From assembly GCA_048571215.1 (NCBI GenBank), contig CP182352.1:3540373-3604372 (forward strand): 64,000 nucleotides of DNA, given 5' to 3'. The DNA is from Halarcobacter sp. Lineage in GTDB: Bacteria > Campylobacterota > Campylobacteria > Campylobacterales > Arcobacteraceae. Shown here piece after piece: positions 15,519 to 33,000 of this stretch. The notes beneath the pieces are model-generated. The model was given only the letters and a program-made list of their open reading frames with translations, searched no databases and was not told the origin of the DNA. Position 1 is the first letter of the stretch. Every line of letters begins with the position of its first letter. Position numbers and translations under genes: made by a program.

Positions 15519-16480
15519 AAACTTTTTTTTTAATTCTATTATTAACTATTTCTTTAAATGCAGGATGGAAAACACAAAGGGAAAATCTTGATAAGGTTTA
15601 TATTTTAGGAGATTTTAGAGTTTTTTATACTTTAAAAGGAAAGGATGCCCTTCCTAGAAAAAATAGAGTGGATTTAAATAAAAACTCTATTCCTGATTAT
15701 GTAGAAAATATTGCACAAAGATTAAATGTAACAAAAGAACTTTATACAAAAATATTGGGGTTTCAAGATCCTCTAAAATCAAAAAGATATAGAGGGGTAA
15801 AATATATTGATATACATATTTTAAATTCAAAACATAGTTCATCAGGAGATGCTGTTGTAACTTTTAACTATAAAATTTTAGATAAAGAAGATGAAGTTAT
15901 AAGTATGAAAATAAGAAACAATCTTGATAAAGATACTTTAACTCCTTCCCATGAATATTTTCACTTGCTTCAAAATAGTTATAGTATGTTTAAAAATAGA
16001 TGGTATACAGAAGGTACTGCAAGATGGTCTGAAAGAGTATTTAAAAAAGGTACTGGTAAAAGAGGAATATTACCCCAAAATTCAAGATCTTTAGATGTAT
16101 TATTAGATATGACATATGATGCAAAGGGATTTTGGAGAAAATTAGCTTACCTTTGTGATACAAATAATGGGAGTTTTGTAAATAGTCTAAATCTTAAAAC
16201 AGATGTACCAAATTATCCAAACTTGATAGAAGACAGAAGGATTTATGGTTATGAATTTATAAGAGTCTTTTTAGAAAATTTGGACAAACAAGATAATATT
16301 GTTTCTAAAAAAAGAGGTTATGGTGAGTTTGATTGGAGTGAAAAAAATCAAAAATATAATGAAGACAACAACAAGTATATTTTAAAAGCTGTAGTTGATA
16401 CTATAAATACAGTTTGTCCAAAAACAAATCAAGAGATAAACAATTTTAAAATTGTTGCAAAAGATTATATTAGAAGATAA
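15515..16480 (+). CDS. Secreted protein with HExxH motif (putative zinc metallopeptidase)
   Basis: Signal peptide MKTFFLILLLTISLNAG. HEYFH motif followed by WYTEGTARW. Start overlaps the upstream stop (ATGA). Confidence 0.4.
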   Translation: MKTFFLILLLTISLNAGWKTQRENLDKVYILGDFRVFYTLKGKDALPRKNRVDLNKNSIPDYVENIAQRLNVTKELYTKILGFQDPLKSKRYRGVKYIDIHILNSKHSSSGDAVVTFNYKILDKEDEVISMKIRNNLDKDTLTPSHEYFHLLQNSYSMFKNRWYTEGTARWSERVFKKGTGKRGILPQNSRSLDVLLDMTYDAKGFWRKLAYLCDTNNGSFVNSLNLKTDVPNYPNLIEDRRIYGYEFIRVFLENLDKQDNIVSKKRGYGEFDWSEKNQKYNEDNNKYILKAVVDTINTVCPKTNQEINNFKIVAKDYIRR

Positions 16481-18882
16481 TGGAAAATAAATTACTATTT
16501 TCATTAAAAGAGATTGAATCTATTACAGGTGGTAAATGGGTTAATTTTGATGAAAAATTAGTTATAGATGAGTTTGTCCATCTACTACCACATATAAAAG
16601 ACGGGGATCTTTTTATTGTACATTATGCAAATTGGTATAATAAAAAAACAGATAATGAAAAGGATATTCCAAGAGCTATTAAAAAAGGTGCTCGTGCTTT
16701 AATGGTTCAAAAACAAACTGATATATCAAATTTATCTATGCCTGTTTTAGTAGTAGATGACACTTATTATGCCTTAAAAAATTTAGCTTTGTATGCATCC
16801 GAAAAAGCAAGTTCAAAACGAGTTGTTATCACAGGAAGTTATGGAAAAACAGGTTTCAAAAATCACTTATATCATTTGATAAAAGATAAAACAAAAGTAT
16901 TTGCAAGACTTAGTAGTTCAAATAGAGTTGCTTCAACCTATGGAAACTTAGCTTCCCTAAAAAAAGATACAGAAGTTTTATTAGTTGAAATCCCTATTAG
17001 TACTAGAAATAAAACACAAAGACGAGCAGGTTATGTTAGACCTGATATTTGTGTTATAACTTCAATTGGGCATGAACATATAGAAAGACATGCTAGTGTA
17101 AATAATATTATAAAAAAGAAGTGTTCTATTGCTGGAACTTTGCCAGAAGAAGGAAAAATAATTGTACCTAGTGATGGAGAATATAGTGATCTTATAAAAA
17201 AAGAGTTAAGAAAATATGAAGATATAGAGGTTTTAACTTTTGGATATAAAGATAATTGTAATGCTCAGTTATTAAGTGTATGGTACGAGAATTATAGATA
17301 TAAGGTGATTGCTAGAATTGAAGAGGAACTTGTGCAATATGAAGTTCCTTTTGTAGATGATCATGCACCTCTTAGTTCAATATGTGAATTATTGTGTATA
17401 AAACACTTAGGTTTTGATATATATGAATGTGCAAAAAATTATAAAAATATTAAAAATTTTAGAAGTAGTGGGAATTTATATAAATTAGAATATAAAGAAA
17501 AAACCTTTTATCTGTATGACCATAGTAGAAGGGGTGGAGTAGAAGGGTACCGTTCTTTTTTGAAAACAATTAAAAAGATTAATCCTAAGGGAAAAGGAAG
17601 AAAAATATTTGTTACTTCTGAGTTTGTAGATATTCAAGATGGTGAAGAGAAGTTTATAGATAAAAATGAGTTTAAACAATTGATTGAAGAAGCATCAATT
17701 GATCAGTTTTATACAGTAGAAAATTTTAAAGCTGTTCATGAAGATTTAATAAGTGATAAAAAAAAGTGGATACAACACTCTTTAAAAGTTGAAGATTTAA
17801 GAGAAAATTTTCTTAATAATATTCATGAGGGAGATGTTATTTGTATAAAAGCTATATTTGAAAGCTCTCTTCAGCTACTTAGTAAAGATATTTTACACAA
17901 TTCAGAAATATTAAACTCTCAGCAAGAATATAATACAAAGGTTGATTTATTAAAAAACTGTAGGATAATTGATACAAAATATATGGAAAGATTTTATTCT
18001 ATAATGGACAATGCAAAAAAAGAGAATTGGGTTAATTATTTTCCTTTTTTATATACCTTCTCTGCCTCAAAAAGTAGAAAAATTTTACTAAATTTTGAAG
18101 ATGATGTAATGAGTGTTTATTTTTTAAGACATCTAAACAGTAGAAGAAGAGAACCTTTTTTACAATTGTATTTTATACCTATACCTTTTAGTTCTCAAAA
18201 GTTAAAAAAAGCATTAACCTTAGTTAAAGAGTTTAATCATGCATCTTCAAATACAATTCTTTGGTGTGATGCAGAGGATATAAAAAGAGTTAGAGAAAAT
18301 AAAGAATTTGATAAGGTAATAAAATTTAGATATAAGGAGTCTGAGTTTATATATTCTCCACAAAATTATGAAACTTTATCAGGTAGTAAATACAAATATT
18401 TAAGACGACAAATAGGATGGATAAATGCTTTAAAAGATGTAAAAGTAACCTCTTATAAAAAAGAGCATTTAAAAGACTGTTTATCTTTATATGATGATTG
18501 GAAAAAAACTCAAGGTCTTAAATATGAATCTATAGAAGATGAATCTTATACAAAACTTTGTCTTTATCATAGTTTTGATTTTCCTAAAGAGATATTAGAT
18601 GGAATAGTGGTCTTAATAGATAATCAGGTTAAATCTTTTGCTTTTTATGGAAAAATCACAAATGAAATATCAAATATGTTTATTGCAAAAAGTGACCATA
18701 GTATAAGAGGTTTGCAAGTTTTTACAAATTATCAAATATTATTAAGATTAGAAGATTACAAATATGCAAATGCTTCAGGAGGAGATTTAAGTAAAGGTTT
18801 ATACGAATCCAAAAAAAAATTCAGACCTTCAAAAATGCATAAAATTTATAAAGGGGCTGTTAAATTTAGTTTTTTTAGATAA
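16480..18882 (+). CDS. MurF-type Mur ligase fused to a DUF2156 (MprF C-terminal, aminoacyl-tRNA transferase-like) domain
   Basis: Residues 1-~480: P-loop ITGSYGKTGFKN, VITSIGHEHI, and the same length and ends as the two stand-alone paralogs. Residues ~500-800: LSGSKYKYLRRQI...LSLYDDWKK pattern typical of DUF2156. TAATG overlap with the upstream gene. Confidence 0.6.
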   Translation: MENKLLFSLKEIESITGGKWVNFDEKLVIDEFVHLLPHIKDGDLFIVHYANWYNKKTDNEKDIPRAIKKGARALMVQKQTDISNLSMPVLVVDDTYYALKNLALYASEKASSKRVVITGSYGKTGFKNHLYHLIKDKTKVFARLSSSNRVASTYGNLASLKKDTEVLLVEIPISTRNKTQRRAGYVRPDICVITSIGHEHIERHASVNNIIKKKCSIAGTLPEEGKIIVPSDGEYSDLIKKELRKYEDIEVLTFGYKDNCNAQLLSVWYENYRYKVIARIEEELVQYEVPFVDDHAPLSSICELLCIKHLGFDIYECAKNYKNIKNFRSSGNLYKLEYKEKTFYLYDHSRRGGVEGYRSFLKTIKKINPKGKGRKIFVTSEFVDIQDGEEKFIDKNEFKQLIEEASIDQFYTVENFKAVHEDLISDKKKWIQHSLKVEDLRENFLNNIHEGDVICIKAIFESSLQLLSKDILHNSEILNSQQEYNTKVDLLKNCRIIDTKYMERFYSIMDNAKKENWVNYFPFLYTFSASKSRKILLNFEDDVMSVYFLRHLNSRRREPFLQLYFIPIPFSSQKLKKALTLVKEFNHASSNTILWCDAEDIKRVRENKEFDKVIKFRYKESEFIYSPQNYETLSGSKYKYLRRQIGWINALKDVKVTSYKKEHLKDCLSLYDDWKKTQGLKYESIEDESYTKLCLYHSFDFPKEILDGIVVLIDNQVKSFAFYGKITNEISNMFIAKSDHSIRGLQVFTNYQILLRLEDYKYANASGGDLSKGLYESKKKFRPSKMHKIYKGAVKFSFFR

Positions 18883-18910: not shown

Positions 18911-20359
18911 ATGATTGTATTAAATAATAGTGAAATTGAAGAAGCAACAAAAGGGACTTGGATAAATAAAATTGATGAATTAGATATAAAAAGAGTAATA
19001 TTTAGTAGTACAAAAATTCAAAATTCAGATTTTTATTTCCCATACAATCAAGAAAAATTTCTAGAAGACAGTGAAGAAAATATCAATTTAATAAATAGAG
19101 TATTTAAAAAAGGTGCTATTGCTATAGCTTTACCTAAAAATTCCAAAATAAAAATTGACAAACCAACCCTTCTTGTTGATCATTTAAGAGATTCTTTTAG
19201 AGATTTAGCATTAGCTTCTACTAATAAAACCCAAGCAACAAAAATTTTAGTAACTGGTTCCTATGGAAAAACAGGATTTAAAAATCAACTTTATACTTTG
19301 ATAAATGAGTTTAAAAACACTTTTACTTTTTTAGATTCTGCAAATAAAAGTCTTCCTATATATAAAACTTTAAGTTCAATTCCTAGTGATTGTGAAGTTG
19401 CTATAGTTGAAGTTGCTGCTCCTGGCTATGAGATATCAAAAAAAAGAGCCAATTATGTGAAACCAGATATTGCAGTTATAACAAATATTGGGCCTGAACA
19501 TTTAAGACAACATGGTGGTAGTATTGAAAATGTTATTGAGAATAAATCAAGAGTTGCATATGGACTTAAAGATAATGGTTTGATAATAATTCCTAACCAA
19601 AAAGAATATAATACAAAAGAAAAAATGACTAAGTATATCCATGAGATAAACCCTACACTAGAAATATTGAGTTTTGGAGAAGATAGTGATAATAATGCAT
19701 ATATTTTAGAAAAAAACTTTTTAGATGTAGGATGGAATTTAAAAATAAAAATAAATGATAAAGAAATAGATTTTACACTACCTTTTTTAGAAGAGTATTC
19801 AGTAAAAGCAACTTTACCTATTTTATTAGTTTGTGATTACTTAGATTTAGATTTAAAGCAGATTGTTACAAAATATAAAAACTATACACACTTTGCAAGT
19901 AGTGGAAACTTTTATAAGGTAACTTCATATGAAAAAACCTTTTATCTTTATGATCAAAGTATTAGGGGAATATTAGATGGATTCAAAGAGACTTTAAAAG
20001 TAATTAGTCAAATGAAACCTCAAAAAAAGGGAAAGAAAATAGCACTTTTTTCTGAGTTTATAAATTTTGATGAGAGTTCGGTTGATGTTGTTAATTTGGA
20101 TGAGTTTAAACTTTTGTTTAAAAATTCAGGTTTAAAATCATTATTTACAATCAATAAGTTTTGTGAGCATATAAATGTATTGCATGATAAATCAATATGG
20201 AAAGAGCATAGATTTAGTATAAATGATATTATGGATAAAGTTATAGCTGATATAGAAGATGATGATATGCTTTTTATTCGTGCGACTCAAGAAAGTAAAG
20301 CAGACACTTTAGTAAAAAATATCTTGGATAATGCAAGTAGTGTAGAACAATATTATTAA
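18911..20359 (+). CDS. Divergent MurF-type Mur ligase family protein (paralog 2)
   Basis: VTGSYGKTGFKNQ P-loop, VITNIGPEHLRQHG, YLYDQSIRG in place of the canonical DxSYNANP. Confidence 0.7.
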   Translation: MIVLNNSEIEEATKGTWINKIDELDIKRVIFSSTKIQNSDFYFPYNQEKFLEDSEENINLINRVFKKGAIAIALPKNSKIKIDKPTLLVDHLRDSFRDLALASTNKTQATKILVTGSYGKTGFKNQLYTLINEFKNTFTFLDSANKSLPIYKTLSSIPSDCEVAIVEVAAPGYEISKKRANYVKPDIAVITNIGPEHLRQHGGSIENVIENKSRVAYGLKDNGLIIIPNQKEYNTKEKMTKYIHEINPTLEILSFGEDSDNNAYILEKNFLDVGWNLKIKINDKEIDFTLPFLEEYSVKATLPILLVCDYLDLDLKQIVTKYKNYTHFASSGNFYKVTSYEKTFYLYDQSIRGILDGFKETLKVISQMKPQKKGKKIALFSEFINFDESSVDVVNLDEFKLLFKNSGLKSLFTINKFCEHINVLHDKSIWKEHRFSINDIMDKVIADIEDDDMLFIRATQESKADTLVKNILDNASSVEQYY

Positions 20360-20377: not shown

Positions 20378-21133
20378 ATGATTAATATAATAACAAACCC
20401 TTTTTTAAAAAAAAGATATTTTTCCGACTTTTCAAATGAATATATTATAAAAAGTAATACTAGTTTGAGTGGAGCAATTTTATTAATGTTTAGTCTAACA
20501 GTAGTTTCATTTGTATTCTTTTGGATATTTTCAAATGAACTACTTATAAACAGTACTCCTATAGCTATAGAAAATGTAAAGAATTTTTCTTTTGTAAGTG
20601 GAGTGATCTCTTTTATTATAGCTTTTTTTGCATATTATAAGCCAGGATTATCTCCAATCTTAGCACCCTTATATGCAGTTTTTTCGGGTATTTTTATCTC
20701 AGGTCTGAGTTTTGCTGCAGAACAAAAGTTTCCAGGTATTGCAATGCTAACTGCTGAAGTTACTTTAACAACTTTTATTATTGTTTATATTGGATATAAG
20801 ATTGGTATTATTAAAGTAACACAAAAATTTAAATCTATAGTTTATTCACTTATTGGGATTATATCATTTTTGTATTTATTGAGTTTCATCTTAATGCTTT
20901 TTAATACCACTATCCCTTTGATTCACGAAGCAGGTATAGGTGGAGTAATATGGACTTTTTTTATTATGGCTACAGCTTCATTTCATCTTGCAATAGATAT
21001 AGATAAGGTAGAAAAATCTAATACTAACAAAGGGTATGAAAACTGGAACTTAGCTTTAGGATTAATGGTATCTTTGATATGGCTTTATTTTTCAACTTTA
21101 AGATTTTTATCTCGAATTAAGAGTCTAAAATAG
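20378..21133 (+). CDS. Polytopic membrane protein, Bax-inhibitor-1-like (Bax1-I_2-type)
   Basis: About 7 predicted TM helices. N-terminal NPFLKKRYF resembles the SNPxL start of BI-1-like proteins. Confidence 0.4.
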   Translation: MINIITNPFLKKRYFSDFSNEYIIKSNTSLSGAILLMFSLTVVSFVFFWIFSNELLINSTPIAIENVKNFSFVSGVISFIIAFFAYYKPGLSPILAPLYAVFSGIFISGLSFAAEQKFPGIAMLTAEVTLTTFIIVYIGYKIGIIKVTQKFKSIVYSLIGIISFLYLLSFILMLFNTTIPLIHEAGIGGVIWTFFIMATASFHLAIDIDKVEKSNTNKGYENWNLALGLMVSLIWLYFSTLRFLSRIKSLK

Positions 21134-21210: not shown

Positions 21211-22914
21211 ATGCAAATATTATTTTTGACAGATCAAAATATTAATGAAAAATATTCTAAAGTTATTTTACAATATAACAAAGCACTTACTCAAAATATC
21301 TTATTAGTTAATTATTCTTCCCTATATGAAAAACAAAAGTTTATTTATGCAAAAGAGTGTATGGTATTAAATAAAGAGGAAGTGCTTACTGACGTACTTC
21401 TTTCCCCATCTATTGTTATTGATTTAAGTCAAACTTTAGAATATACAATTTTAGAAAAATATTTAAAAACATGTTGGGTAAATGTACAACAAGCATTTTT
21501 CCAAAAAGATGAAGCAAAACAAAACTCCATTGGAAGCATAGAATCTTCTGCAAAAGTATCAAATTGTATTTGTTATACCAATAATAATGAAGCACCAATA
21601 TTAAAAGTTATTGAAGATAGTATTAATTTATCTTCAGACAATAAAATATTAAGCCCTTTTAACACAATTGGATTAATCGAACAAGCTATTACTGAATTTT
21701 TTGCAGATATAAATTATTTTAGTCAATTTGAGTGGCCTAGAAATAAGGATATTTCAAATCATCAAAGTACAGTATTCTTTGTACAATTTGAAGTTTTTGA
21801 AAGATTTGGTGATTTTATAGTAGAAAATATTCAATATCAATCTTTAAATTATGAACAACTCATATCTTATAATAATCATTTTCTTTTTAAATATATTGAT
21901 GATTTATTAGACTTTAGACTTGATAGGTATATCCAACAAGTAAAATTTAGAACACATATTATAAAGCTTTGTGAAAAATATAAAATAGATTTAGAACCTT
22001 CATATTATAAAACTTTTGTACTTACCAAAGATAATCATATTGGACTACAACGTAGATATTATGGATCACTTAATAGTAAAAGAGGTATAAATATTATAAA
22101 TGATAAACATAAGACTAATACTTTTTTAAGAGAAAATGGTTTTAATGCTAACTTATCTTATGAATATACACTAAAGCAATTACTTGAAGAGGAAGTAATT
22201 GATAATTTGCCAATTGATTATCCCCTAACTTTAAAACCTACGGATAAAAAAGAGGGTTATGGGGTTGTAACTAATATTCCCAATAAAAAGCGTATGAAAA
22301 TCTCTATCAAAAAAATGTTAAACTTAGAGGATATCAATTCAGTTTTAATTGAAGAGTTTTTTGAGGGTGTAACCTATCGAGTATTAGTTGTTAGTGGTGA
22401 AGTTACGGCAGTACTTAAATATATCCCAGCATCTATTTTAGGAGATGGAGAGAGTAGTATTGAAGAGCTTATAAAAAATAAAAATCTTATTTCTAAGTCA
22501 AGAGTAAGGATAAATAATGCTCTTAGATTAAGTATTTTTAATGATGAAAAAAGATGGGAAACTGTATTACCTGAAGGGAAGAAATATATTATAAGTCATA
22601 ATTCCCATGCATCAAATGGGGGACAATCAATAAATGTTACTAATCTTTTTGATGAAAAGTATAAAAAAGTTTGTTCTCAAGCATGTAAAAGCTTAGGATT
22701 GAAAATGGCAGGTATCGATATGATAGTAAACTCAGCTGGAGATTATAGAATTATTGAGATAAATTGTGGTCCTGCTTTGGCAACACATGTTAATCCTAAA
22801 CATGGCTCTTCTATTAAAACATATACAAAAGTCTTATATTCACTGTTAGAAGAGGTGGATATTGAAAAAGATGAAAATAGTTATCTAAAAGATTTAGTAC
22901 CATATCATAAATAA
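21211..22914 (+). CDS. ATP-grasp ligase, cyanophycin-synthetase G-domain-like, with ~270-aa N-terminal domain of unknown function
   Basis: LTLKPTDKKEGYGV, VLIEEFFEGVTYRVLVVSGEVTAVLKYIPASILGDGESSIEELI, HNSHASNGGQSINVT, GIDMIV...YRIIEINCGPAL..HVNPKHG. The order and spacing follow the CphA1 G domain. Confidence 0.65.
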   Translation: MQILFLTDQNINEKYSKVILQYNKALTQNILLVNYSSLYEKQKFIYAKECMVLNKEEVLTDVLLSPSIVIDLSQTLEYTILEKYLKTCWVNVQQAFFQKDEAKQNSIGSIESSAKVSNCICYTNNNEAPILKVIEDSINLSSDNKILSPFNTIGLIEQAITEFFADINYFSQFEWPRNKDISNHQSTVFFVQFEVFERFGDFIVENIQYQSLNYEQLISYNNHFLFKYIDDLLDFRLDRYIQQVKFRTHIIKLCEKYKIDLEPSYYKTFVLTKDNHIGLQRRYYGSLNSKRGINIINDKHKTNTFLRENGFNANLSYEYTLKQLLEEEVIDNLPIDYPLTLKPTDKKEGYGVVTNIPNKKRMKISIKKMLNLEDINSVLIEEFFEGVTYRVLVVSGEVTAVLKYIPASILGDGESSIEELIKNKNLISKSRVRINNALRLSIFNDEKRWETVLPEGKKYIISHNSHASNGGQSINVTNLFDEKYKKVCSQACKSLGLKMAGIDMIVNSAGDYRIIEINCGPALATHVNPKHGSSIKTYTKVLYSLLEEVDIEKDENSYLKDLVPYHK

Positions 22915-22938: not shown

Positions 22939-23889
22939 ATGAGTAAATTAAATATATTAAAAGAGTTTGATCATCGACAGTTATTCCGTTTCTTTGTAGA
23001 TGGGCGTTTATATGTAAAAGAAAATGGTTGGGAAGGTTATGAAAGTAGACAACCTGGATGCATAAAAGGGATGAGCCTATCTTATGCCCATATGGTTAAT
23101 AACTTTGAATTAAAAGATGGTTTAACTTTGGAATATATATCTAAATTACATGACCTTACATTTTATAATATTGAAAAAAAATTACGTAGAAATCGTTACC
23201 CTGGTGAGATTAGAGAGTTTAGAATTAGTTTTCTTGTTAAACCTGTTATTACAAAGGGTGGTATAGCAGAGTTAATGGGAGATAGAACAGTTGTTGATGC
23301 TTTTAAAAAGGGTATAAGAGGGTGTAATACTGCAGAAGATATATATAATGCTATTATGGCTGGGAAAAAAATCCGTTATATTTCAGAAGTTGGTTATTTA
23401 ACACCAGAATTAAATCAAGCATCTTTGGATAGAGAGCCAAAAGATTTATATCTTAAAGCAAGAGCACAAGTTAAAAAGAATATTACAGAAAAAACATTAC
23501 AACTTATTAATGAGTATAATGAAAAAATCAATACTTTAGAGGAAGAAGAGAAAATCTATTTTATTGTAGATGTAATTAAAAGATTAGAAAGATTACACCC
23601 TTTTGTTGATGGAAATATTCGTGTATTTGTTACTATTTTACTAAACCATTTATTGATGTTAAATGATTTTTATCCAGCTATTTTTGAAGAACCAAGTGTT
23701 TTTGATGCTTATACAACAAAGGAGATAGTAGAAGAGGTTAAAAAGGGGCAAGAGTTAGTTAAACAATTGATTGATAATCCAGAGAGTAGAGTATTTGGAC
23801 ATTCAATAACTGATGAAAGTGAAGAAAACATTTCAACAATTTGTGAGTTGATGTCTGAATTTTCAGAAGCAATAAAAAATCATAATTAA
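22939..23889 (+). CDS. Fic-domain protein with non-canonical active-site motif
   Basis: HPFVDGNIRVFV versus canonical HxFx(D/E)GNGRxxR. His, Phe, Asp, Gly, Asn and the first Arg are kept; the second Gly and the last Arg are replaced. Confidence 0.65.
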   Translation: MSKLNILKEFDHRQLFRFFVDGRLYVKENGWEGYESRQPGCIKGMSLSYAHMVNNFELKDGLTLEYISKLHDLTFYNIEKKLRRNRYPGEIREFRISFLVKPVITKGGIAELMGDRTVVDAFKKGIRGCNTAEDIYNAIMAGKKIRYISEVGYLTPELNQASLDREPKDLYLKARAQVKKNITEKTLQLINEYNEKINTLEEEEKIYFIVDVIKRLERLHPFVDGNIRVFVTILLNHLLMLNDFYPAIFEEPSVFDAYTTKEIVEEVKKGQELVKQLIDNPESRVFGHSITDESEENISTICELMSEFSEAIKNHN

Positions 23890-23895
23890 TCAAAC

Positions 23896-25575
23896 ATGCA
23901 AATTTTATTTTTAGTTGAAGATAAAGAAAATTTATGGGAAGAGTCTCGTATTAAATTAGAGCCCCTTTTAAAATATAATAAGTCTTTATCTCAAAATATT
24001 TTATTATCAGATTGTGCTTATATTTCTAATGGTTTTTCAAGTAAATGTTTAGTCGTAAATACAAACGAGATGAAAAAACTTGTAATGTTATCACCCTCTT
24101 TGATTGTAAATCTTTATAATAAAAAATCTCAATTGGATATTGAAGCATATTTTCGTGTCAAATGGCCTAGTGCACAAATAGTTTGTTGGAATAAAAAATA
24201 TTTAGATAAAAGATATTTTGATAATTTTATAGATGAAAAAGATATTATAGAATCTATAGCATATACAACAAATTTAGAAGCACCAAAATTTAAATTACTT
24301 AGTAAAACTGTTAAAGATGAAGATTTTATTGGTCTTATTGAGCAAGCAGTAACTGAGTATTTCTCAGATAGAAACTTTTACAAATCTTTTAAATTACTTC
24401 AAACAAGTAAGATTTTAAAAAACCGTAGTATTATCTTTAAATTTCAATATAAAATTATAAAAGAAAATGCTGATTATACTATTAAAATCAATTCTGTATC
24501 TTTACTTAGTTTTTTTGATTTAGTTGAATTGGATATAAATTATGTTTATGAGTATTTTGATGAGGTATTAGATTTTAGATATAAATATTATATAGAACAA
24601 GTTAAATTAAGACAATATATAGATGATTTATGTAAAAAGCATAATATTAATCTTGAACCCTCAATTTTTAGAACTTTTGTTTTATCAAAAGATGATAAAT
24701 TAGGATTACATAGACCATATTTTGGTGGAGTTAATGACTTAGAAGGTATAAAAACAATTAATGATAAACATTTAACGAATGTTATTTTAAAAGAGAAAGG
24801 GTTTAAAACAAATATCTCTTATGAATATTCATTAGATGAACTCAATAATGAAAAAGTTATTGAAGAGATTCCTTTGGAGTATCCATTGGTTTTAAAACCA
24901 ACAGATAAGAAAAAAGGATATGGTGTAGTAACAAATATTTTAAATCCAGAAAAAATGCTTTTTTCAGTTAAGGAACTAATGAAACTAGGAGATATAAAAC
25001 CTGTTTTAATTGAAGAGTTTTTTGTTGGTATGACATATCGTGTTTTAGTAGTTGCAGAAGAGGTAATTGCTGTACTTAAATTTATGCCTACTTATATTGT
25101 AGGAAATGGAAAATTAACTATTAAAGAGTTGATACTATCAAAAAATATACTTTTAAGATCTCGTATTCGTATAAATGATGCCTTAGAGTTGAATCTTTTA
25201 AATGATGGGTATAATTATAGTACAATATTAGAAAATGGTCATAAATATATTCTTAGTCATAACTCTCATGCTTCAATGGGTGGACAAGCTACTAATGTAA
25301 CTGATATATTTAGTGATGAATTAAAACAAATATCATGTGAAGTTACTAAAAGTTTAGGTTTAACACATACAGGAATAGATATGAATGTAAATGCTCAAGG
25401 AGATTATCGTATATTAGAAGTTAATTGTGCTCCAGCATTATCATCACATTTATATCCTAAATATGGAACATCAATTGATACTTATAGCAAAGTTTTAGAA
25501 GCTTTTTTTACTCATACTGACTTACAAAGAGTAGAAAATAAATATCTTCCCGAAATGTTTAAATATCATAAGTAA
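23896..25575 (+). CDS. ATP-grasp ligase, cyanophycin-synthetase G-domain-like (paralog of 21211..22914)
   Basis: Collinear with the paralog from MQILFL to the terminal YHK. VLKPTDKKKGYGV, YRVLVVAEEVIAVLKFMPTYIVGNGKLTIKELI, HNSHASMGGQATNVT, GIDMNV...YRILEVNCAPAL. Confidence 0.65.
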   Translation: MQILFLVEDKENLWEESRIKLEPLLKYNKSLSQNILLSDCAYISNGFSSKCLVVNTNEMKKLVMLSPSLIVNLYNKKSQLDIEAYFRVKWPSAQIVCWNKKYLDKRYFDNFIDEKDIIESIAYTTNLEAPKFKLLSKTVKDEDFIGLIEQAVTEYFSDRNFYKSFKLLQTSKILKNRSIIFKFQYKIIKENADYTIKINSVSLLSFFDLVELDINYVYEYFDEVLDFRYKYYIEQVKLRQYIDDLCKKHNINLEPSIFRTFVLSKDDKLGLHRPYFGGVNDLEGIKTINDKHLTNVILKEKGFKTNISYEYSLDELNNEKVIEEIPLEYPLVLKPTDKKKGYGVVTNILNPEKMLFSVKELMKLGDIKPVLIEEFFVGMTYRVLVVAEEVIAVLKFMPTYIVGNGKLTIKELILSKNILLRSRIRINDALELNLLNDGYNYSTILENGHKYILSHNSHASMGGQATNVTDIFSDELKQISCEVTKSLGLTHTGIDMNVNAQGDYRILEVNCAPALSSHLYPKYGTSIDTYSKVLEAFFTHTDLQRVENKYLPEMFKYHK

Positions 25576-25609
25576 GTAAATCAAGAAGATAAAAAAGGAG
25601 AACTGTAAT

Positions 25610-27415
25610 ATGCAAGCACTAATACTAGCAGCAGGTACAGGGAGTAGATTAGGTAAATATACAAAAGAAAATACTAAATGTATGTTAGAAGTTAATGGTG
25701 AAACTTTAATTAATCAAGCTCTAGCTAAATTAAATAATGTAGGTATAAAAAAACTAATAATGGTTGTTGGGTATAAAAAAGATAATCTAATTGAACATGT
25801 AGGAAATAGATATAAAAATATTGAAATTGAATATATAGAAAATCCAATTTATAGTACTACAAACAATATTTATTCTTTGTATTTAGCTAAAGATAAGTTA
25901 GCGCAAGATGATACTATATTATTAGAAAGTGATTTACTTTTTGAAGAAAAAATTCTTTTGAATTTAATAAATGATAAAAGAAAGTCATTGGCAGTAGTGG
26001 ATAAGTATCAGGCTTGGATGGATGGAACAGCTGTTACCTTGAGTGATAATGATGATATTTTAGGTTTTTATGGTAAAAAAGCATTTCAGTTTAAAAATGT
26101 TGATAAATATTATAAAACAGTAAATATTTATAAATTTTCAAAAGAGTTTTCTTTAGATGTATATATCCCTTTTTTAGAAGCATATTCAAAGGCAATGGGT
26201 GACAATGAATATTATGAATCTGTATTAAGAGTAGTTTTAATGCTAGAAGACCAAGAGTTAAAAGCTTTAAAACTTAATGGTGAAAAATGGTATGAGATTG
26301 ATGATGTACAAGATAAAGCAAATGCAGAAGTAATATTCTCTAAAAATGCAAAAGATAAATTAAAATTGATTCAAAGTAGATATGGGGGTTATTGGAAGTT
26401 TCCAGAGTTAAAAGATTTTTGTTATTTAGTTAATCCATATTTTCCAACTTTTAAAATGCAAGAGGAGATGAAAGCATATTTTTATGAACTTCTTTCTCAA
26501 TATCCATCAGGGCAATCAACACTAAGACTTCTTGCTGGGAAAATGTTTAAAGTAGAGGCTGAAAATATTTTAGTTGGAAATGGAGCATCAGAGATAATAA
26601 GAGGCTTAGGAAATGCAATTGAGGGAACTTTTGGTTTAGCTTTTCCAACATTTAATGAATATCCTGAAAGTCTAGGTTATAATAGAATAGTTAAATTTAT
26701 GCCAAAAAATGACCAATTTTCTTATGATATAAATGATATGATGAATCTAGCTAATAATTGTGACAATCTATTATTAATCAATCCTGACAATCCAAGTGGT
26801 AATTTTATATCAAAAGATTTTTTATTAGAGCTTGTAGAAAAACTTCAAAAAATAAATAAGAATTTAATTTTAGATGAGTCTTTTGTTGATTTTTCAACAC
26901 AAGGTGAAAAAGAGACTATGATTACACAAAAAATAATAGATAGATATCCTAATTTAATAGTTATAAAAAGTATATCAAAAAGTTATGGAGTTCCAGGTAT
27001 AAGACTTGGAGTTGTAGCAACATCAAATATGAAAATTATGTCAGCACTAGAAAAAGAAGTAACTATATGGAACATTAATTCTTATGGTGAATTTTTCTTA
27101 CAAATTATTGGAAAATATAAAAAAGATTATAATGCAAGTTGTGAAGAGATTTCCATGGAAAGAGATAGATTTTATATTAAACTTCAAGAAATCTCCTATC
27201 TAAAAGTTGTCTCTTCTCAGGCGAATTATTTTTTACTACATGTAAGTGATAAATTTACAGCAACTGAACTCACTGAGTTATTATTATATAAATATGAAAT
27301 TTATATAAAAGACTTGACAGGAAAAATTGGTTTTGAAGATAAACAATGTATACGAATAGCTGTAAGAAGTTATGAAGATAATGAGTTTTTAATTGATAGA
27401 TTAAAAGAGTTATAA
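25610..27415 (+). CDS. Bifunctional LicC/MobA-like nucleotidyltransferase + class I/II PLP enzyme (aminotransferase or CobD-like decarboxylase)
   Basis: N-terminus ALILAAGTGSRLG...MLEVNGETLI. C-terminal half INPDNPSGNF, ILDESFVDF, SISKSYGVPGIRLG (PLP lysine present). Confidence 0.7.
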   Translation: MQALILAAGTGSRLGKYTKENTKCMLEVNGETLINQALAKLNNVGIKKLIMVVGYKKDNLIEHVGNRYKNIEIEYIENPIYSTTNNIYSLYLAKDKLAQDDTILLESDLLFEEKILLNLINDKRKSLAVVDKYQAWMDGTAVTLSDNDDILGFYGKKAFQFKNVDKYYKTVNIYKFSKEFSLDVYIPFLEAYSKAMGDNEYYESVLRVVLMLEDQELKALKLNGEKWYEIDDVQDKANAEVIFSKNAKDKLKLIQSRYGGYWKFPELKDFCYLVNPYFPTFKMQEEMKAYFYELLSQYPSGQSTLRLLAGKMFKVEAENILVGNGASEIIRGLGNAIEGTFGLAFPTFNEYPESLGYNRIVKFMPKNDQFSYDINDMMNLANNCDNLLLINPDNPSGNFISKDFLLELVEKLQKINKNLILDESFVDFSTQGEKETMITQKIIDRYPNLIVIKSISKSYGVPGIRLGVVATSNMKIMSALEKEVTIWNINSYGEFFLQIIGKYKKDYNASCEEISMERDRFYIKLQEISYLKVVSSQANYFLLHVSDKFTATELTELLLYKYEIYIKDLTGKIGFEDKQCIRIAVRSYEDNEFLIDRLKEL

Positions 27416-27446: not shown

Positions 27447-28898
27447 ATGGACGATAGAGTGATGTTATTAAACTCAGATGATATAGCACAAATCACTGGT
27501 GGGGAATGGTTTAATTTAAATGAAACAATAAAGTTTCATGGAATTAGAGTGAATATTAAACGTTTAGAAAAAAATGATATATGCTTTTGTACAAATCCTG
27601 AACAATGGGGTAAAAAGATTGTTAACTCAGAAAAATCGCTTCAGAAGATTTTTGAAAGAGGAGCTAGTGCAGCTGTAATTGTAAATAAAGAACTTGTAAA
27701 TAGTATAAAAAAACCATTATTATTAGTTGAAAATAGTAAAAAAGCTTTAGAAGATATAGCTTTTTATGTTAGAGATAATATTAATATTCCTAGAGTTTTA
27801 GTTACTGGTACAGAAGGTAAAACAGGTTTTAAAAATCAAATTTATTCACTATTGTCAAGACAGATTAATGTACATGCCAAACTCGATAGTTCAAATTTAA
27901 ATGTACCTATAATGTGCTCTTTGGCAAGTTTATCGGAGAATGATAAAGTAGAAATTTTAGAAGCATCTGTTGCAGGTCCAAATGTTGGTGTGACTAGAAG
28001 CAATATAGTAAAACCAGATATATGTGTAATAACACAAGTTGGTATTGCCCATATTACTACTCATGGTTCAGTTGATAATATGATTGAAAATAAAGCATCA
28101 ATAATAGATGCCCTTAAGAAAGATGGTATTTGTATTGTAAATGCAGATAGTGATAATTATGATAAATTAAGAGAAGCTATATATAGAAGAAAATATGTTG
28201 ATATCAAAACCTTTGGAAGTAGTTCTAAATGTAATGCTAGGATAATTGAATCTTCATTTGATAAAAAAGAACTTTTATGGAATGTAAAAGCTAATATAGA
28301 GGGGATAGAACTAGAGTATAAAGTTCCTTTATTGGGTGATTATGTTCCTGTTGCTAGTTTAATACCTTTACTTACGATTCATTATTTAGGCTATGATGTA
28401 AAAAAAGCTGCAGCTGATTTTATATATTTTAAAAGTATGGATACTATGGGTGGATTGAGTGAAATTGTTTGTAAAGATAAAACATTTAGATTTTTTGATC
28501 ATTCTCATAGGGGTTCACTTTTAGGTTATAGCTCTGCTTTAAAAGATTTTGCTTATATGCATCCTAAAAAAAATGGTAAAAAGATTGCAGTTATTGGAAA
28601 TATGATGAATATAGGAAAAATATCAAAAAAAGCTCATGCTGATTTAGTACCTTTAATAGAAGAAGCAAAAGTTGAAAGATTATATACCGTAGGTAAATTT
28701 GCAAAACCAATACATGAAAAACTTAAAGATAAATCAATTTTAATAAATCATGCAGATAAATATCAAGATATAGAAAAACAAATTTTAGCAGATATAGATG
28801 ATGGCGATGTAATTTTTATGAAAGGTAATCATAGAATTTGGTTAAAAGAACTTGCTGCAAAGATATATGATATGGGAGAACGACATGCGATCAGATGA
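27447..28898 (+). CDS. Divergent MurF-type Mur ligase family protein (paralog 3)
   Basis: VTGTEGKTGFKNQ P-loop, VITQVGIAHITTHG, RFFDHSHRG, C-terminal GDVIFMKG as in the paralogs. Confidence 0.7.
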   Translation: MDDRVMLLNSDDIAQITGGEWFNLNETIKFHGIRVNIKRLEKNDICFCTNPEQWGKKIVNSEKSLQKIFERGASAAVIVNKELVNSIKKPLLLVENSKKALEDIAFYVRDNINIPRVLVTGTEGKTGFKNQIYSLLSRQINVHAKLDSSNLNVPIMCSLASLSENDKVEILEASVAGPNVGVTRSNIVKPDICVITQVGIAHITTHGSVDNMIENKASIIDALKKDGICIVNADSDNYDKLREAIYRRKYVDIKTFGSSSKCNARIIESSFDKKELLWNVKANIEGIELEYKVPLLGDYVPVASLIPLLTIHYLGYDVKKAAADFIYFKSMDTMGGLSEIVCKDKTFRFFDHSHRGSLLGYSSALKDFAYMHPKKNGKKIAVIGNMMNIGKISKKAHADLVPLIEEAKVERLYTVGKFAKPIHEKLKDKSILINHADKYQDIEKQILADIDDGDVIFMKGNHRIWLKELAAKIYDMGERHAIR

Positions 28899-29964
28899 TA
28901 ATGTAGATATTTTCTTTTTAGGAGATACGTATTTTGGCGAATGGCATATGAGACTTCGTGGAAGAAAAGGGCAGTCTAATATTTTAGAGGAAAAAGGTTA
29001 TTTACATTTTGGTAAAAATTTTGAAGAAATACTAAGTGATGGTGATGAGGTTCTTATGAATTTAGAATGTACTATTACCGAAATAGAACCATCACCTTTG
29101 AAAGGTACTGAAAAAAAACATCTTTATTCTGCAAGAGCAGAAGGAACAATTTCAGCACTTAAAAAGTTAAATATAACCACATGTATTTTAGCAAATAATC
29201 ATGCGGTAGATTATGGTAAGGCTGGACTTATTGATACTATTACAAATTTAGAAGAAGCTGGTATTAAATATATTGGAGGAGGTAGAAATGAAGCAGAAGC
29301 AGCGGCTCCACTAATATTTCAAAAAAAACTAGGTGATAAAAAATTCAAAGCAGCTATAGTATCAACATACAATTATGGTGTAGCATCTGATAGATATGGA
29401 TTTTATGCAAAGGGTGATATCCCAGGAGTTAATAGAAAAAATTTATCAAAAATTACAGAACAAATTAAAAAAATAAAAGCAAAAGACAATGATATAATGT
29501 ATATTTTGTCTCCCCATTGGGGACCAAATTATGTATGGAGAACTTTTACTCAACAAAAACAAGGTGAAGAATTTATAAGATCAGGTGTTGATTTAATAGT
29601 TGGACATAGTGCCCATATGATTCAGGAAGTTGAATATTATAAAGATAGACTTATAATATATAGTATAGGTAATTTTCTTATAAATGGTAATGGTGAATAT
29701 AAAAGAAGAAGATTGCCACCTTATAGTTTTATAGCAAGATTGAATGTGCAAAATATTGATAATACTTTTGTTAAAAAGATCTATTTATATCCTATATTTG
29801 TTGATAATATGGCAAGTGATTTTACCCCTAGATTTGTAGATAAAAAAGAGTTTATTCATGTAAAAGATATATTAAGAAGTCATGAAATAAGTACAGATAT
29901 ATTTGATAATACAGTAATTTTAGGTCAAGATAAGTTTGGATATTTTTTAGAATATGAAATTTAA
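28885..29964 (+). CDS. CapA/PgsA-family (PGA_cap, metallophosphatase-fold) protein, no obvious membrane anchor
   Basis: FLGDTYFGEW, MNLECTIT, LANNHAVDYGKAGL, SPHWGPNY, VGHSAHMIQEVE, YSIGNFL. Start moved from 28852 to Met12 (ATG 28885), which follows GGAGAA and gives a 14-nt overlap with the upstream gene. Confidence 0.75.
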   Translation: MRSDDNVDIFFLGDTYFGEWHMRLRGRKGQSNILEEKGYLHFGKNFEEILSDGDEVLMNLECTITEIEPSPLKGTEKKHLYSARAEGTISALKKLNITTCILANNHAVDYGKAGLIDTITNLEEAGIKYIGGGRNEAEAAAPLIFQKKLGDKKFKAAIVSTYNYGVASDRYGFYAKGDIPGVNRKNLSKITEQIKKIKAKDNDIMYILSPHWGPNYVWRTFTQQKQGEEFIRSGVDLIVGHSAHMIQEVEYYKDRLIIYSIGNFLINGNGEYKRRRLPPYSFIARLNVQNIDNTFVKKIYLYPIFVDNMASDFTPRFVDKKEFIHVKDILRSHEISTDIFDNTVILGQDKFGYFLEYEI

Positions 29965-30037: not shown

Positions 30038-33000
30038 ATGATTAAGCTAATAATTAGACACACAAATGCTGAGATTGAAGAAAAAGTTGTTGAAGATGGT
30101 ATGAAGTTTCAACCATTGGAAGGTGAACAATTCTACTTCATAGGTTCTGATGGTTATACATTTACTTTATCAGGGAATGAATCTACAGTAAATCTTTCTT
30201 TAATGGATGGTAATGAAAGAGTTAGTGTAAGTCTTGATAACATGGCAGATTTAATAAAAGCTAATAATCCTGGAGATGCATTTGCTTTAACTACAGCACT
30301 AGGGGTGTCTTCAACTCCGGATGGTGCAGCTGAAATAGAACAAGCATTAGCAGACCCAAATTTAGAATCAGCACAAATTATAGATGTATTAAAAGAGAAT
30401 TTATCAGAAAGTACTGTTGCAGAAAATGATGGTGCAATTATTGATAACTTTGGTTCATTGGCAGAAGCTCTTGATGCAGCTGCAGCAGGTGCAATACAGA
30501 GTGATCCGACTTTATTTATAGACGAAACTAGAGGGCAAGAAGAAACTCCAGCAGATACGGAGAGAGGTGAACGAATCGAGACTGATACCGACACGGATAC
30601 TGATACAGATACAGATACTGACACGGATACAGATACCGATACTGATACCGACACAGATACGGACACGGACACAGATACAGACACGGATACTGATACAGAC
30701 ACTGACACAGACACTGATACAGATACTGACACGGATACAGATACCGACACAGACACTGATACAGATACTGATACCGACACCGACACTGACACCGATACTG
30801 ATACAGACACAGATACAGACACGGACACAGACACGGACACAGACACGGACACAGACACGGATACAGACACGGATACCGATACCGACACTGACACCGATAC
30901 TGATACAGACACCGATACAGATACTGATACAGACACTGATACAGACACTGATACCGACACAGACACGGATACAGATACTGATACCGACACTGACACAGAC
31001 ACTGATACAGATACAGACACCGATACTGATACTGATACCGATACTGACACAGACACGGATACAGATACTGATACCGATACTGATACCGACACGGATACAG
31101 ATACTGATACCGATACTGATACCGACACGGATACTGACACAGACACCGATACAGACACTGATACAGATACAGACACCGATACTGATACTGATACCGACAC
31201 AGATACTGACACAGACACGGATACAGATACTGATACCGACACGGATACAGATACTGATACTGACACGGATACAGACACCGATACTGATACCGATACCGAC
31301 ACTGATACCGATACAGACACAGATACAGATACTGACACAGACACTGATACTGATACAGACACTGATACTGATACTGATACCGACACGGATACAGATACGG
31401 ACACTGACACAGACACGGACACGGACACTGATACAGATACTGACACAGACACTGATACCGACACGGATACAGACACGGATACAGATACGGATACAGATAC
31501 TGATACTGATACAGATACTGACACGGATACAGATACCGACACGGACACAGACACTGATACAGATACTGACACGGACACTGATACAGATACTGACACAGAC
31601 ACTGATACAGATACAGATACAGATACCGACACTGACACAGATACAGATACAGATACTGATACAGATACAGATACAGATACTGATACAGACACGGATACAG
31701 ATACTGATACCGACACGGATACAGACACGGATACAGATACAGACACGGATACAGATACTGATACTGATACAGATACTGACACGGATACAGATACCGACAC
31801 GGACACAGACACTGATACAGATACTGACACGGATACAGATACTGATACCGACACTGACACAGATACAGACACCGATACTGATACAGACTCTGATTCAGAC
31901 AGTGATACCGATTCGGATTCAGACTCTGACACCGATAGTGATAGTGACTCAGACACTGATTCAGATACCGACAGTGATAGTGATTCAGACACAGACTCTG
32001 ACTCAGACAGTGATACGGATTCTGATAGTGACTCAGATTCTGATTCGGATAGTGATTCAGACTCAGATAGTGACTCTGATTCAGATACTGACACGGATAC
32101 GGACACAGATACCGACACAGACACTGATACGGACGCAGACACTGACACAGACACTGACACGGATACAGATACAGATACGGACACAGACTCTGACTCAGAT
32201 AGCGATACCGATAGTGATAGTGACTCAGACACAGACAGTGATACAGATTCAGACACAGATTCGGATAGCGACTCAGATACAGACTCTGATTCAGACAGTG
32301 ATACCGATTCGGATTCAGACTCTGACACCGATAGTGATAGTGACTCAGACACTGATTCAGATACCGACAGTGATAGTGATTCAGACACAGACTCTGACTC
32401 AGACAGTGATACGGATTCTGATAGTGACTCAGATTCTGATTCGGATAGTGATTCAGACTCAGATAGTGACTCTGATTCAGATACTGACACGGATACGGAC
32501 ACAGATACCGACACAGACACTGATACTGATACGGACACAGACACTGATACCGACACAGACACTGATACGGACACAGACACTGATACCGACACAGACACGG
32601 ATACCGATACTGATACGGACACAGATACGGACACAGACACTGATACAGACACAGACACTGACACGGATACAGATACAGATACGGACACAGACTCTGACTC
32701 AGATAGCGATACCGATAGTGATAGTGACTCAGACACAGACAGTGATACAGATTCAGACACAGATTCGGATAGCGACTCAGATACAGACTCTGATTCAGAC
32801 AGTGATACCGATTCGGATTCAGACTCTGACACCGATAGTGATAGTGACTCAGACACTGATTCAGATACCGACAGTGATAGTGATTCAGACACAGACTCTG
32901 ACTCAGACAGTGATACGGATTCTGATAGTGACTCAGATTCTGATTCGGATAGTGATTCAGACTCAGATAGTGACTCTGATTCAGATACTGACACGGATAC

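Follow-up and report, generated by a model that had tools for sequence, protein, structure and literature searches.

We found that a 64,000-nt stretch of the genome of a Halarcobacter species (the window, within which all coordinates are given) carries a gene cassette in which a Fic protein of AnkX type (22939-23889) is encoded together with a candidate donor-making enzyme, a nucleotidyltransferase fused to a pyridoxal phosphate (PLP) enzyme (25610-27415), and with three MurF-like and two ATP-grasp ligases. In the model which we favour, and to which we give about an even chance, the fusion makes cytidine diphosphate (CDP)-ethanolamine, the Fic protein moves phosphoethanolamine from it to hydroxyl groups, and amino acids are attached by the ligases. 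To our knowledge, transfer of a phospho-alcohol has been shown for no Fic enzyme other than AnkX, which has been viewed as a curiosity among Legionella effectors. No description of a Fic/Mur-ligase/ATP-grasp/CapA system was found in the literature searched. The cassette appears to be undescribed in its combination of an AnkX-type Fic protein outside an effector context, a dedicated donor module and, usually, a MurF-like fusion; the single domains are known.

The Fic motif, HPFVDGNIRVFV (residues 220-231, nt 23596-23631), was confirmed to depart from HxFx(D/E)GNGRxxR in the way that a first-pass annotation of this DNA had described, the second Gly being replaced by Ile and the final Arg by Val. 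The motif of AnkX, HPFRDANGRTFV, likewise lacks the final Arg, and among AnkX-like relatives of the Fic protein the second Gly is replaced by Ile, Thr or Cys. That annotation had gone as far as a non-canonical Fic protein using another donor; beyond being merely non-canonical, the protein is AnkX-like in both sequence and fold. It matches the Pfam Fic family at E = 2.7e-6 and the NCBIfam model T4SS_AnkX (NF043028, the Dot/Icm effector AnkN/AnkX/LegA8) at E = 1.7e-32, over model positions 7-302 of 938 and with the protein ending at residue 316, the score of 112.6 bits lying below the cut-off of 1400. AnkX chains were the sole significant matches when the PDB was searched with phmmer (E = 2e-27), and the alignment spans AnkX residues 12-107 and 186-288. 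An AlphaFold model made from 16 homologues (predicted local distance difference test, pLDDT, 91.2) was compared to known structures with Foldseek, giving template modelling (TM) scores of 0.74-0.78 for AnkX (4BER/4BET; E ~1e-13) vs at most 0.44 for FICD, Bep and other Fic structures.

Residues H220, P221, D224, N226 and R228 of the motif are invariant in 16 family members, as are R17, D21, G22, E28, G30, W31, Y34, R37 and G40 in the N-terminal part, where the stretch FVDGR..ENGW.GYE.R.PG is near-identical to AnkX. The AnkX residues E226, G236, N262 and D265, which were picked as close to the choline group (PMC7228754), align with E217, I227, S253 and D256 of the Fic protein, and the EP(S/N)VFD segment by the choline site is kept between the two. 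The 316-aa protein contains neither ankyrin repeats nor an inhibitory (S/T)xxxE(G/N) motif, and no antitoxin is present. Among the 29 window open reading frames (ORFs) scanned with Pfam, out of 53 of at least 100 aa, none belongs to a type IV secretion family, and the Fic gene is surrounded by ligase genes and a type I secretion operon. By sequence and predicted fold, the protein thus belongs to a wider AnkX-like Fic clade rather than to AnkX proper, and its likeness to AnkX goes far beyond chance.

One gene beyond the Fic gene, after an ATP-grasp gene (23896-25575), lies the nucleotidyltransferase-PLP fusion, which was found as previously described. Residues 1-250 form the nucleotidyltransferase, with AAGTGSRLG at residues 7-15 as the G-x-G-(T/S)-R-L nucleotide-binding loop, and residues 265-601 form the PLP enzyme, with SISKSYG at residue 454 and Lys457 aligned with the Lys of the equivalent SLSK stretch in PDB 6oux. 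This structure is also the best match to the PLP half (2.1e-51, 178.7 bits); 3ftb, deposited as a histidinol-phosphate aminotransferase, scored 97.3 bits, Salmonella CobD 87.7 bits and two named HisC structures (8bj1 and 1fg3) at most 65 bits. The CobD model (TIGR01140) was the top NCBIfam match with 164.7 bits, vs 143.8 bits for hisC. The earlier description as a CobD-type enzyme therefore holds for the closest relatives, and not at the level of the CobD equivalog cut-off, which the score does not reach. PDB 6oux was deposited as a "threonine phosphate decarboxylase-like enzyme", and SMUL_1544 of Sulfurospirillum multivorans is annotated under this name; we equate the two solely on the matching molecule name, and the literature searched held nothing relevant on "6OUX". 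According to Keller et al. in 2016, SMUL_1544 reportedly decarboxylates O-phospho-L-serine to ethanolamine phosphate for norcobamide synthesis. Cobamide genes were not seen among the scanned window ORFs.

The nucleotidyltransferase half is closest to PntC of Tde1415 (6pd1, 1.7e-14) and to LicC (1jyk, 3.9e-12), and NCBIfam matches to sugar-1-phosphate nucleotidyltransferases are similar in strength. The fusion belongs to a very large family (more than 8000 matches), and in all three genomic contexts of orthologues with 72-74% identity (L015, L016 and L017; L numbers denote the loci compared) a LicD gene lies within two genes downstream, in a polysaccharide locus. LicD is the classical CDP-choline-type transferase. 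Since the orthologues pair with LicD, the usual partner of the fusion would be a transferase using CDP-choline-type donors. One of the three orthologue loci adds methyltransferases, a CDP-alcohol transferase, a second LicD and PglB. When LicD, CDP-alcohol transferase and methyltransferase proteins of L015 and L016 were used as queries, no significant match was found in the window, the L015 methyltransferase protein giving only a weak match to part of a protein encoded at 12450-15518 (E = 0.056); choline kinase and phosphoenolpyruvate (PEP) mutase are also not present in the window. Because homologues of LicD and the CDP-alcohol transferase are absent, the AnkX-like Fic protein is the only candidate in the window for a user of the donor. 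On these similarities we predict that the fusion makes a CDP-activated amino-alcohol phosphate.

It should also be noted that in L015 (8201-18485) the fusion orthologue is flanked by two methyltransferases, one of which has an (alpha/alpha)6-like N-terminal domain, and accompanied by a CDP-alcohol phosphatidyltransferase, two LicD genes, glycosyltransferases and PglB. This looks like a locus for de novo phosphocholine synthesis from phosphoserine for glycan decoration.

We also compared the surroundings of the Fic gene between genomes. Close relatives of the Fic protein are rare (31 clusters in 5.8 billion proteins), and a genome scan and contig look-ups gave 13 distinct Fic loci including the window, from Sulfurimonas, Halarcobacter, Methyloversatilis, Methylococcaceae, Halieaceae, Francisella, Comamonadaceae, Burkholderiales, Alcaligenaceae and Myxococcales; L023/L024 and L025 were added later and stand outside this count. 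In 9 of the 13 loci a LicC-like nucleotidyltransferase is encoded no more than 10 kb from the Fic gene, always with an adjacent PLP enzyme, and these nine span Campylobacterota, Beta- and Gammaproteobacteria and Myxococcota. The class I/II fusion forms the donor module of the window and of L005 (and of the later L023/L024), and L001, L006 and L009-L013 have a separate 236-aa nucleotidyltransferase next to a class V aminotransferase from the PhnW/AGXT group. That two unrelated PLP folds occupy the same position suggests selection on the combination of an amino-phospho compound with nucleotide activation. Fic and fusion genes are syntenic in three genomes (window, L005 and L023/L024), and L024 (4774-16766; GCA_047518385.1) contains tandem AnkX-like Fic paralogues, one stand-alone and one a Fic::MurF fusion, and has both kinds of donor module, the class I/II fusion as well as a class V aminotransferase whose nucleotidyltransferase is separate. 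The coupling of Fic and donor genes is thus supported by comparative genomics, and the earlier proposal that a LicC-type fusion supplies the donor for the Fic protein gains from this recurrence and from the LicD genes which follow the fusion orthologues. It was incomplete, however, in overlooking the ligases.

The neighbours which the first-pass annotation had left out are a CapA homologue, the three MurF-like ligases and the two ATP-grasp ligases. The ATP-grasp ligases are paralogues which directly flank the Fic protein and match cyanophycin synthetase best, the first having a 280-aa N-terminal domain of unknown kind, and the order ATP-grasp/Fic/ATP-grasp is kept in L005, L006 and L023/L024. 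A BaxI protein is syntenic with this Fic sub-cassette, lying beside the ATP-grasp and Fic genes in L005 and L023/L024. The three MurF-like paralogues, from whose translations the P-loops TGTEGKTG and TGSYGKTG were read, score 121-184 bits vs a murF cut-off of 288.6 and stand in a non-cell-wall context, and so are not genuine MurF; the protein of 27447-28898 covers the murF model over positions 26-414 of 418. Its gene is paired with that of the CapA protein; the MurF3 and CapA genes also adjoin or overlap each other in L001, L004, L005 and L023, and in L006 they are fused as MurF::CapA. The CapA protein also has a weak match to the MslH epimerase (2.9e-12). As listed, with a TTG start, the CapA ORF shares 47 nt (28852-28898) with the end of the preceding MurF-like gene, and the true start is probably further downstream.

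One of the MurF-like ligases is fused to LPG_synthase_C, the C-terminal, aminoacyl-tRNA-dependent transferase-like domain of MprF, and this fusion recurs at 41-42% identity in Halarcobacter bivalviorum L019 and in L024; we know of no description of this architecture. The HExxH protein of 15515-16480 had no Pfam or PDB match and is a recurrent member of the cassette, with homologues in L004, L009, L010, L011, L019, L022, L024 and L025. The N-terminal 600 aa of the 1022-aa kinase protein (hereafter N600) were modelled (pLDDT 80) as an AMMECR1-like domain and an (alpha/alpha)6 barrel, which resemble AMMECR1 proteins and cellobiose-2-epimerase/GH76-type barrels, and a PDB sequence search gave no matches. 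In public annotation N600 is a "Six-hairpin glycosidase-like domain protein", and it has 1428 relatives and often adjoins genes for adhesins or type I secretion.

When 1.84 billion representative proteins were searched with a profile, 181 AnkX-like proteins were returned at E <= 1e-30. Fic::MurF fusions make up 26 of the 35 best-scoring clusters, further architectures being CapA-Fic-MurF, YheCD-ATP-grasp-Fic-MurF, N600-Fic-MurF, N600-Fic, Fic-kinase and Fic-leucine-rich repeat (LRR), with N600 and the kinase each fused to an AnkX-like Fic domain in other proteins (P0169, P0173 and P0196). Weaker matches to the profile are Fic and ankyrin proteins of the AnkX effector type. As these components are fused in various combinations, the Fic protein, Mur-type ligases, CapA, ATP-grasp proteins, N600 and kinase are likely to act in one process. 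The ATP-grasp flanks of the Fic gene and the MurF fusions of its closest relatives suggest that plain transfer of a phospho-amino-alcohol is probably just part of the chemistry. In L004 the Fic orthologue has 68% identity to that of the window; this locus also has a second, divergent Fic::MurF protein (2927-5383), with a motif outside the simple pattern, and an adjoining 782-aa ATP-grasp protein with an acylphosphatase domain (566-2914).

Starting from the observed family and fold assignments, gene order, fusions and co-occurrence, we infer a donor, a transfer to Ser or Thr, a role for the ligases and an acceptor. The CobD/SMUL_1544-like PLP domain would most likely decarboxylate O-phospho-L-serine, available as a normal intermediate, to phosphoethanolamine (or O-phospho-L-threonine to phospho-aminopropanol), and the LicC/PntC-like domain would join the product to cytidine triphosphate (CTP), giving CDP-ethanolamine or a close analogue. 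The cytoplasmic Fic enzyme would attack the beta-phosphorus, release cytidine monophosphate (CMP) and leave a phosphodiester-linked amino alcohol on a hydroxyl group, a step which would stand in for that of LicD with the fusion orthologues of polysaccharide loci. Amino acids would probably then be amide-bonded by the ligases to the transferred group or its acceptor, because the donor and transfer module shares its cassette with three MurF-like and two ATP-grasp ligases. The carboxylate used by the ligases could be that of a nucleotide-linked intermediate, of amino acids added to the new amine or of the Asp side chains of a repeat protein. The class V/PntC-like modules of other lineages would make the same compound or the isosteric 2-aminoethylphosphonate. 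A reading of the class V/nucleotidyltransferase pair as a source of CMP-aminoethylphosphonate may apply; it was considered and not adopted. The PEP-mutase family was absent from the Pfam lists of called genes and from the scanned unlabelled ORFs of the class V loci, where not every ORF was scanned.

In this genome the most likely acceptor would be the giant adhesin encoded at 30038-37729, which would be reachable in the cytoplasm before its export. Substrates of type I secretion are accessible in the cytoplasm before they are exported, and cytoplasmic enzymes could modify them. The protein consists of a conserved N-terminal module, a (T/S)D tract and a C-terminal part with three GAGDDTIN-type repeats. 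The first-pass annotation had estimated about 920 Ser and Thr residues, and our count of the 1832-aa tract agrees well, with 591 Thr and 324 Ser (915 hydroxyls) next to 916 Asp. As in type I-secreted adhesins of the repeats-in-toxin (RTX) kind, TolC, ABC and HlyD genes are adjacent and the C-terminal repeats are acidic and rich in Gly and Asp; the last 542 aa contain no named Pfam domain. Within the tract the dipeptides are arranged in higher-order units, as stretches of pure TD and blocks of mixed SD/TD take turns about nine times. Across the repeat the G+C content rises from about 0.27 to 0.43-0.46 (about 26% for the whole window), and the ORFs in other frames (30154-36066 and 30528-36107 on the minus strand, 30567-36149 on the plus strand) are by-products of the dipeptide repeat and not genes.

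The adhesin is linked to the cassette by the placement of the latter within a conserved operon of adhesin and type I secretion genes and, in L022, by a donor module directly upstream of the adhesin gene. In L022 (metagenome contig NPID01000854.1) the orthologue has 72% identity, with its TD tract starting at the contig end, and is directly preceded by a class V PLP enzyme and a nucleotidyltransferase orthologous to those of the Fic::MurF cassettes; HExxH, LRR and ATP-grasp genes shared with H. bivalviorum L019 also precede it. The orthologue of H. ebronensis (L021) has 57% identity in the N-terminal module and a TD tract of only 24 aa, in the order N600, AvrB_AvrC-like protein, adhesin, histidine kinase, response regulator, TolC and ABC. 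Here a 195-aa AvrB_AvrC-like protein of the Fido superfamily (11960-12547) occupies the place of the Fic/ligase cassette of the window, so a different Fido-fold enzyme may modify the same adhesin family in H. ebronensis; a search of the window for an AvrB-like gene found none. In Sulfurimonas gotlandica a 1322-aa (TD)n protein, which is not an orthologue of the adhesin, is encoded next to type I secretion genes and some 6 kb away from N600 and a protein with tetratricopeptide repeats (TPR) and CapA.

Several observations weigh against the model of CDP-ethanolamine synthesis and Fic transfer to the adhesin. On the side of the enzymes, the second Gly of the Fic motif is occupied by an unusual Ile, and the 164.7 bits of the PLP domain are below the CobD equivalog cut-off of 290.55, so that decarboxylase rather than aminotransferase chemistry is not established. 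The sole pointers to CTP are the similarity to LicC and PntC and the association with LicD. MurF-type ligases normally activate the carboxylate of a nucleotide-linked substrate, and a decarboxylated donor has none, which the model leaves unexplained. The visible stretches of L004, L008, L014 and L019 showed no nucleotidyltransferase, and the visible 10 kb of L022 no Fic gene. An adhesin or TD-rich protein is combined with N600 in H. ebronensis and S. gotlandica, neither of which has an AnkX-like Fic protein nearby, and no (T/S)D-rich protein was found within 10 kb of the Fic gene in any of the 10 other Fic loci. With no such protein near Fic outside Campylobacterota, the general acceptor of the family would be something else or lie further away. 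Finally, the four sequencing runs containing the full locus (word share 0.97-1.00) are labelled sediment metagenome and were guessed to be DNA, and a single metatranscriptomic run covers 6% of the locus words. The earlier suggestion that the repeat protein is the acceptor is thus kept for this genome alone: in this lineage it is plausible, from gene order and composition, but unproven, and it cannot hold for the AnkX-like family in general.

The alternative which survives best, and which we consider somewhat unlikely, is that the ligases build a nucleotide-linked amino-acid or peptide intermediate on the handle made by the nucleotidyltransferase, like UDP-MurNAc-peptide or the UDP-Glu-peptide of pseudomurein. 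The Fic protein would then be MraY-like, moving a phospho-peptide with release of a nucleoside monophosphate to an envelope glycan, a lipid or a protein other than the adhesin, and CapA may epimerise the chain. This would account for ligases which are MurF-like across all three domains, the N-terminal one included, for the dominance of Fic::MurF fusions in the AnkX-like family and for the many lineages in which the cassette has no TD-rich protein nearby. It is also consistent with the glycosyltransferases of some loci (N-acetylglucosamine (GlcNAc)/GT2 in L001, NodZ-like in L012 and L013) and the sugar-epimerase/glycosidase-like barrel of N600, while the MurF::LPG_synthase_C protein hints at lipid- or tRNA-dependent steps. 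However, the cassette contains no polyprenyl-phosphate transferase or flippase, and the donor would again offer a Mur ligase no carboxylate if the PLP domain is a decarboxylase. In addition, the cassette (in the window) or the donor module (in L022) directly abuts the adhesin gene, and the fusion of kinase-Sel1 and LRR parts to the Fic domain suggests that the substrates are proteins.

In its fullest form, our preferred model states that CDP-2-aminoethyl phosphate is used by an AnkX-type Fic enzyme to modify Ser and Thr of the adhesin before secretion and that MurF-like and ATP-grasp ligases, afterwards or in advance, link amino acids by amide bonds to the new amine or to adjacent Asp carboxylates, producing a phosphodiester-linked, peptide-decorated polymer; this modification would be undescribed, and AnkX-type Fic::MurF proteins would be a widespread bacterial family combining phospho-transfer with amide ligation, of which AnkX is the effector offshoot. 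All of this together we regard as unlikely.

It is more doubtful still that the ligases act directly on the Asp beta-carboxylates of the adhesin, much like cyanophycin synthetase, whose Mur-like M domain works on poly-Asp, so that an amine installed by the Fic enzyme or free amino acids become amide-linked and the tract densely derivatised or cross-linked. The 915 hydroxyls do alternate with 916 carboxylates, the ATP-grasp proteins have cyanophycin synthetase as their closest match, hydroxyl-directed enzymes (Fic and kinase) co-occur with carboxylate-activating ones (three Mur-type and two ATP-grasp), and the H. ebronensis orthologue, which has no cassette, has just its 24-aa TD tract. The idea is inferential only, however; the Mur domains are MurF-like and not like the M domain (cyanophycin synthetase matches reach only about 1e-6), and cassettes of other phyla occur without TD-rich proteins.

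That the proximity is meaningless, with a conventional regulatory or toxin-type AMPylator or an inactive Fic protein and a fusion serving LicD-type glycan decoration encoded elsewhere in the genome, is very improbable: the size and usual LicD linkage of the fusion family, the Ile in the Fic motif and a view limited to 64 kb, beyond which a LicD gene is possible, are outweighed by an AnkX-type fold spanning the whole protein including the conserved N-terminal segment, the loss of the final Arg, the lack of an antitoxin and an inhibitory-helix motif, the Fic-fusion synteny in the window, L005 and L023/L024 and, as a strong argument, the recurrence across phyla of the Fic/nucleotidyltransferase/PLP association with two unrelated PLP folds. 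A toxin-antitoxin type AMPylator was rejected in view of the AnkX-type fold, the missing inhibitory motif and the conserved association with donor genes.

The cassette is part of a run of twelve plus-strand genes (12450-37729) with gaps of only -47 to 77 nt between neighbours (Table 1). The region from 37782 to 46056 is the secretion and regulation part of the adhesin operon, with OEP, ABC (with a C39-like domain) and HlyD genes identified by Pfam at 39380-44708. Two paralogous ankyrin-OmpA proteins (11103-12434 and 44698-46056) bracket the cassette, adhesin and type I secretion region, and H. bivalviorum L019 has a homologue of the first (44% identity) in the equivalent position. Outside this region, and unrelated to the Fic finding, a 1171-aa fusion of a major facilitator superfamily (MFS) transporter, an acyltransferase and an AMP-binding enzyme is encoded at 55586-59101 and resembles the LplT-Aas system of lysophospholipid transport and re-acylation.

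Table 1 Genes of the cassette, the adhesin operon and its borders, with positions in the 64,000-nt window.
Feature	Position	Strand	Evidence
Ankyrin + Ig-like + OmpA protein; left border of adhesin/type I secretion region	11103..12434	+	Pfam Ank_2 3e-33, OmpA 1.6e-8
1022-aa protein: N600 + Ser/Thr protein kinase + Sel1 repeats	12450..15518	+	Pkinase 1.9e-39, Sel1
321-aa predicted secreted protein with HEYFH (HExxH) metalloprotease-like motif	15515..16480	+	Read from translation
MurF-like ligase::LPG_synthase_C fusion	16480..18882	+	Mur_ligase_M 2.2e-22, LPG_synthase_C 8.2e-10
Second MurF-like ATP-dependent amide ligase	18911..20359	+	Mur_ligase_M 1.3e-22, TIGR01143 murF 4.6e-35 (below cut-off)
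BaxI_1 family membrane protein	20378..21133	+	Pfam 7.4e-40
ATP-grasp ligase 1, cyanophycin-synthetase G domain-like	21211..22914	+	TIGR02068 4.5e-41 (partial), PDB cyanophycin synthase 1.5e-20
AnkX-family Fic phosphotransferase (predicted), 316 aa	22939..23889	+	NCBIfam, PDB, fold comparison
ATP-grasp ligase 2, paralogue of 21211-22914	23896..25575	+	TIGR02068 2.5e-41
Nucleotidyltransferase-PLP fusion, 601 aa	25610..27415	+	NTP_transf_3 1.2e-11, Aminotran_1_2 3.9e-30
Third MurF-like ligase, all three Mur domains	27447..28898	+	murF subfamily 3.6e-54, Mur_ligase_M 8.2e-25, Mur_ligase_C 2.7e-5
CapA/PgsA-type PGA_cap protein (metallophosphatase fold)	28852..29964	+	Pfam PGA_cap 3.3e-51
2563-aa (T/S)D-repeat protein, candidate type I secretion substrate	30038..37729	+	Composition count, orthologues
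Histidine kinase, response regulator (minus strand), TolC-like, ABC with C39-like domain, HlyD, second Ank-OmpA	37782..46056	.	Pfam

We also compared the cassette to known systems. AnkX is a phosphocholine transferase and Dot/Icm effector of Legionella pneumophila (4BER, 4BET and 6SKU), and the Fic protein shares its fold over the whole 316 aa, keeps the His, Asp, Asn and first Arg of the motif in common with it and has likewise lost the final Arg; by inference it would also use a CDP-linked phospho-alcohol with CMP as leaving group. Unlike AnkX, it lacks ankyrin repeats, and type IV secretion genes were not seen in the window. Its gene shares a cassette with those of a donor-making enzyme of its own and of amide ligases, its close relatives carry MurF-like ligases as fusion partners, and the head group of its donor is probably of the ethanolamine type rather than choline. 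The fusion shares a LicC/PntC-like N-terminal domain with the LicC-LicD pathway and with Tde1415 (PntC-AEPT of Treponema denticola, 6PD1), which also joins a nucleotidyltransferase to a PLP enzyme. In Tde1415, however, that enzyme is a class V aminotransferase and not a class I/II CobD-like one, and the predicted transferase here is a Fic enzyme and not LicD. CobD and SMUL_1544 (1LC5, and 6OUX by name match), decarboxylases of O-phospho-L-threonine and O-phospho-L-serine in cobamide and norcobamide biosynthesis, are fold-type I PLP enzymes like that of the fusion, but here the PLP domain is fused to a nucleotidyltransferase with no cobamide genes nearby, and its predicted product is cytidylylated instead of being attached to cobyric acid.

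The tight coupling of a Mur-family ligase gene to a CapA gene is also found in poly-gamma-glutamate systems (PgsB/CapB with PgsA/CapA), the ATP-grasp domains are closest to the G domain of cyanophycin synthetase, and the MurF-like proteins have the three-domain architecture of the Mur ligases of peptidoglycan and pseudomurein. However, PgsC is absent here, the ligases are MurF-like and not CapB-like, all matches to these families are far below equivalog cut-offs and, unlike in any of these pathways, the ligases are combined with a Fic protein, a nucleotidyltransferase/PLP module, a kinase and an HExxH protein.

Dedicated modification of repeat adhesins has precedents, as the staphylococcal SdgA and SdgB transfer GlcNAc onto Ser-Asp repeat adhesins, and AvrB is a Fido-fold enzyme reported to rhamnosylate a Thr of RIN4. 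Like the SdgA/SdgB substrates, the adhesin described here has a long (S/T)D stalk with candidate dedicated modification genes adjoining, and a Fido-fold AvrB_AvrC-like gene lies directly upstream of the H. ebronensis orthologue. The predicted modification is not a sugar, as in those systems, but a phosphodiester-linked amino alcohol, possibly with amide-linked amino acids, and, in contrast to the staphylococcal adhesins, this one belongs to a Gram-negative organism and is exported by type I secretion.

These results place the AnkX fold in free-living Campylobacterota, Proteobacteria and Myxococcota, with donor-making enzymes of its own alongside and usually with a Mur-type ligase in the same protein, suggesting a native bacterial role for phospho-alcohol transfer and a possible evolutionary source of AnkX. 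They also predict a bacterial de novo route from phosphoserine to CDP-ethanolamine. The candidate substrate is a type I-secreted adhesin in which 915 Ser and Thr residues alternate with 916 Asp. If the model is true, proteins or the envelope would be modified in a new way, and Mur ligases would have gained a new use.

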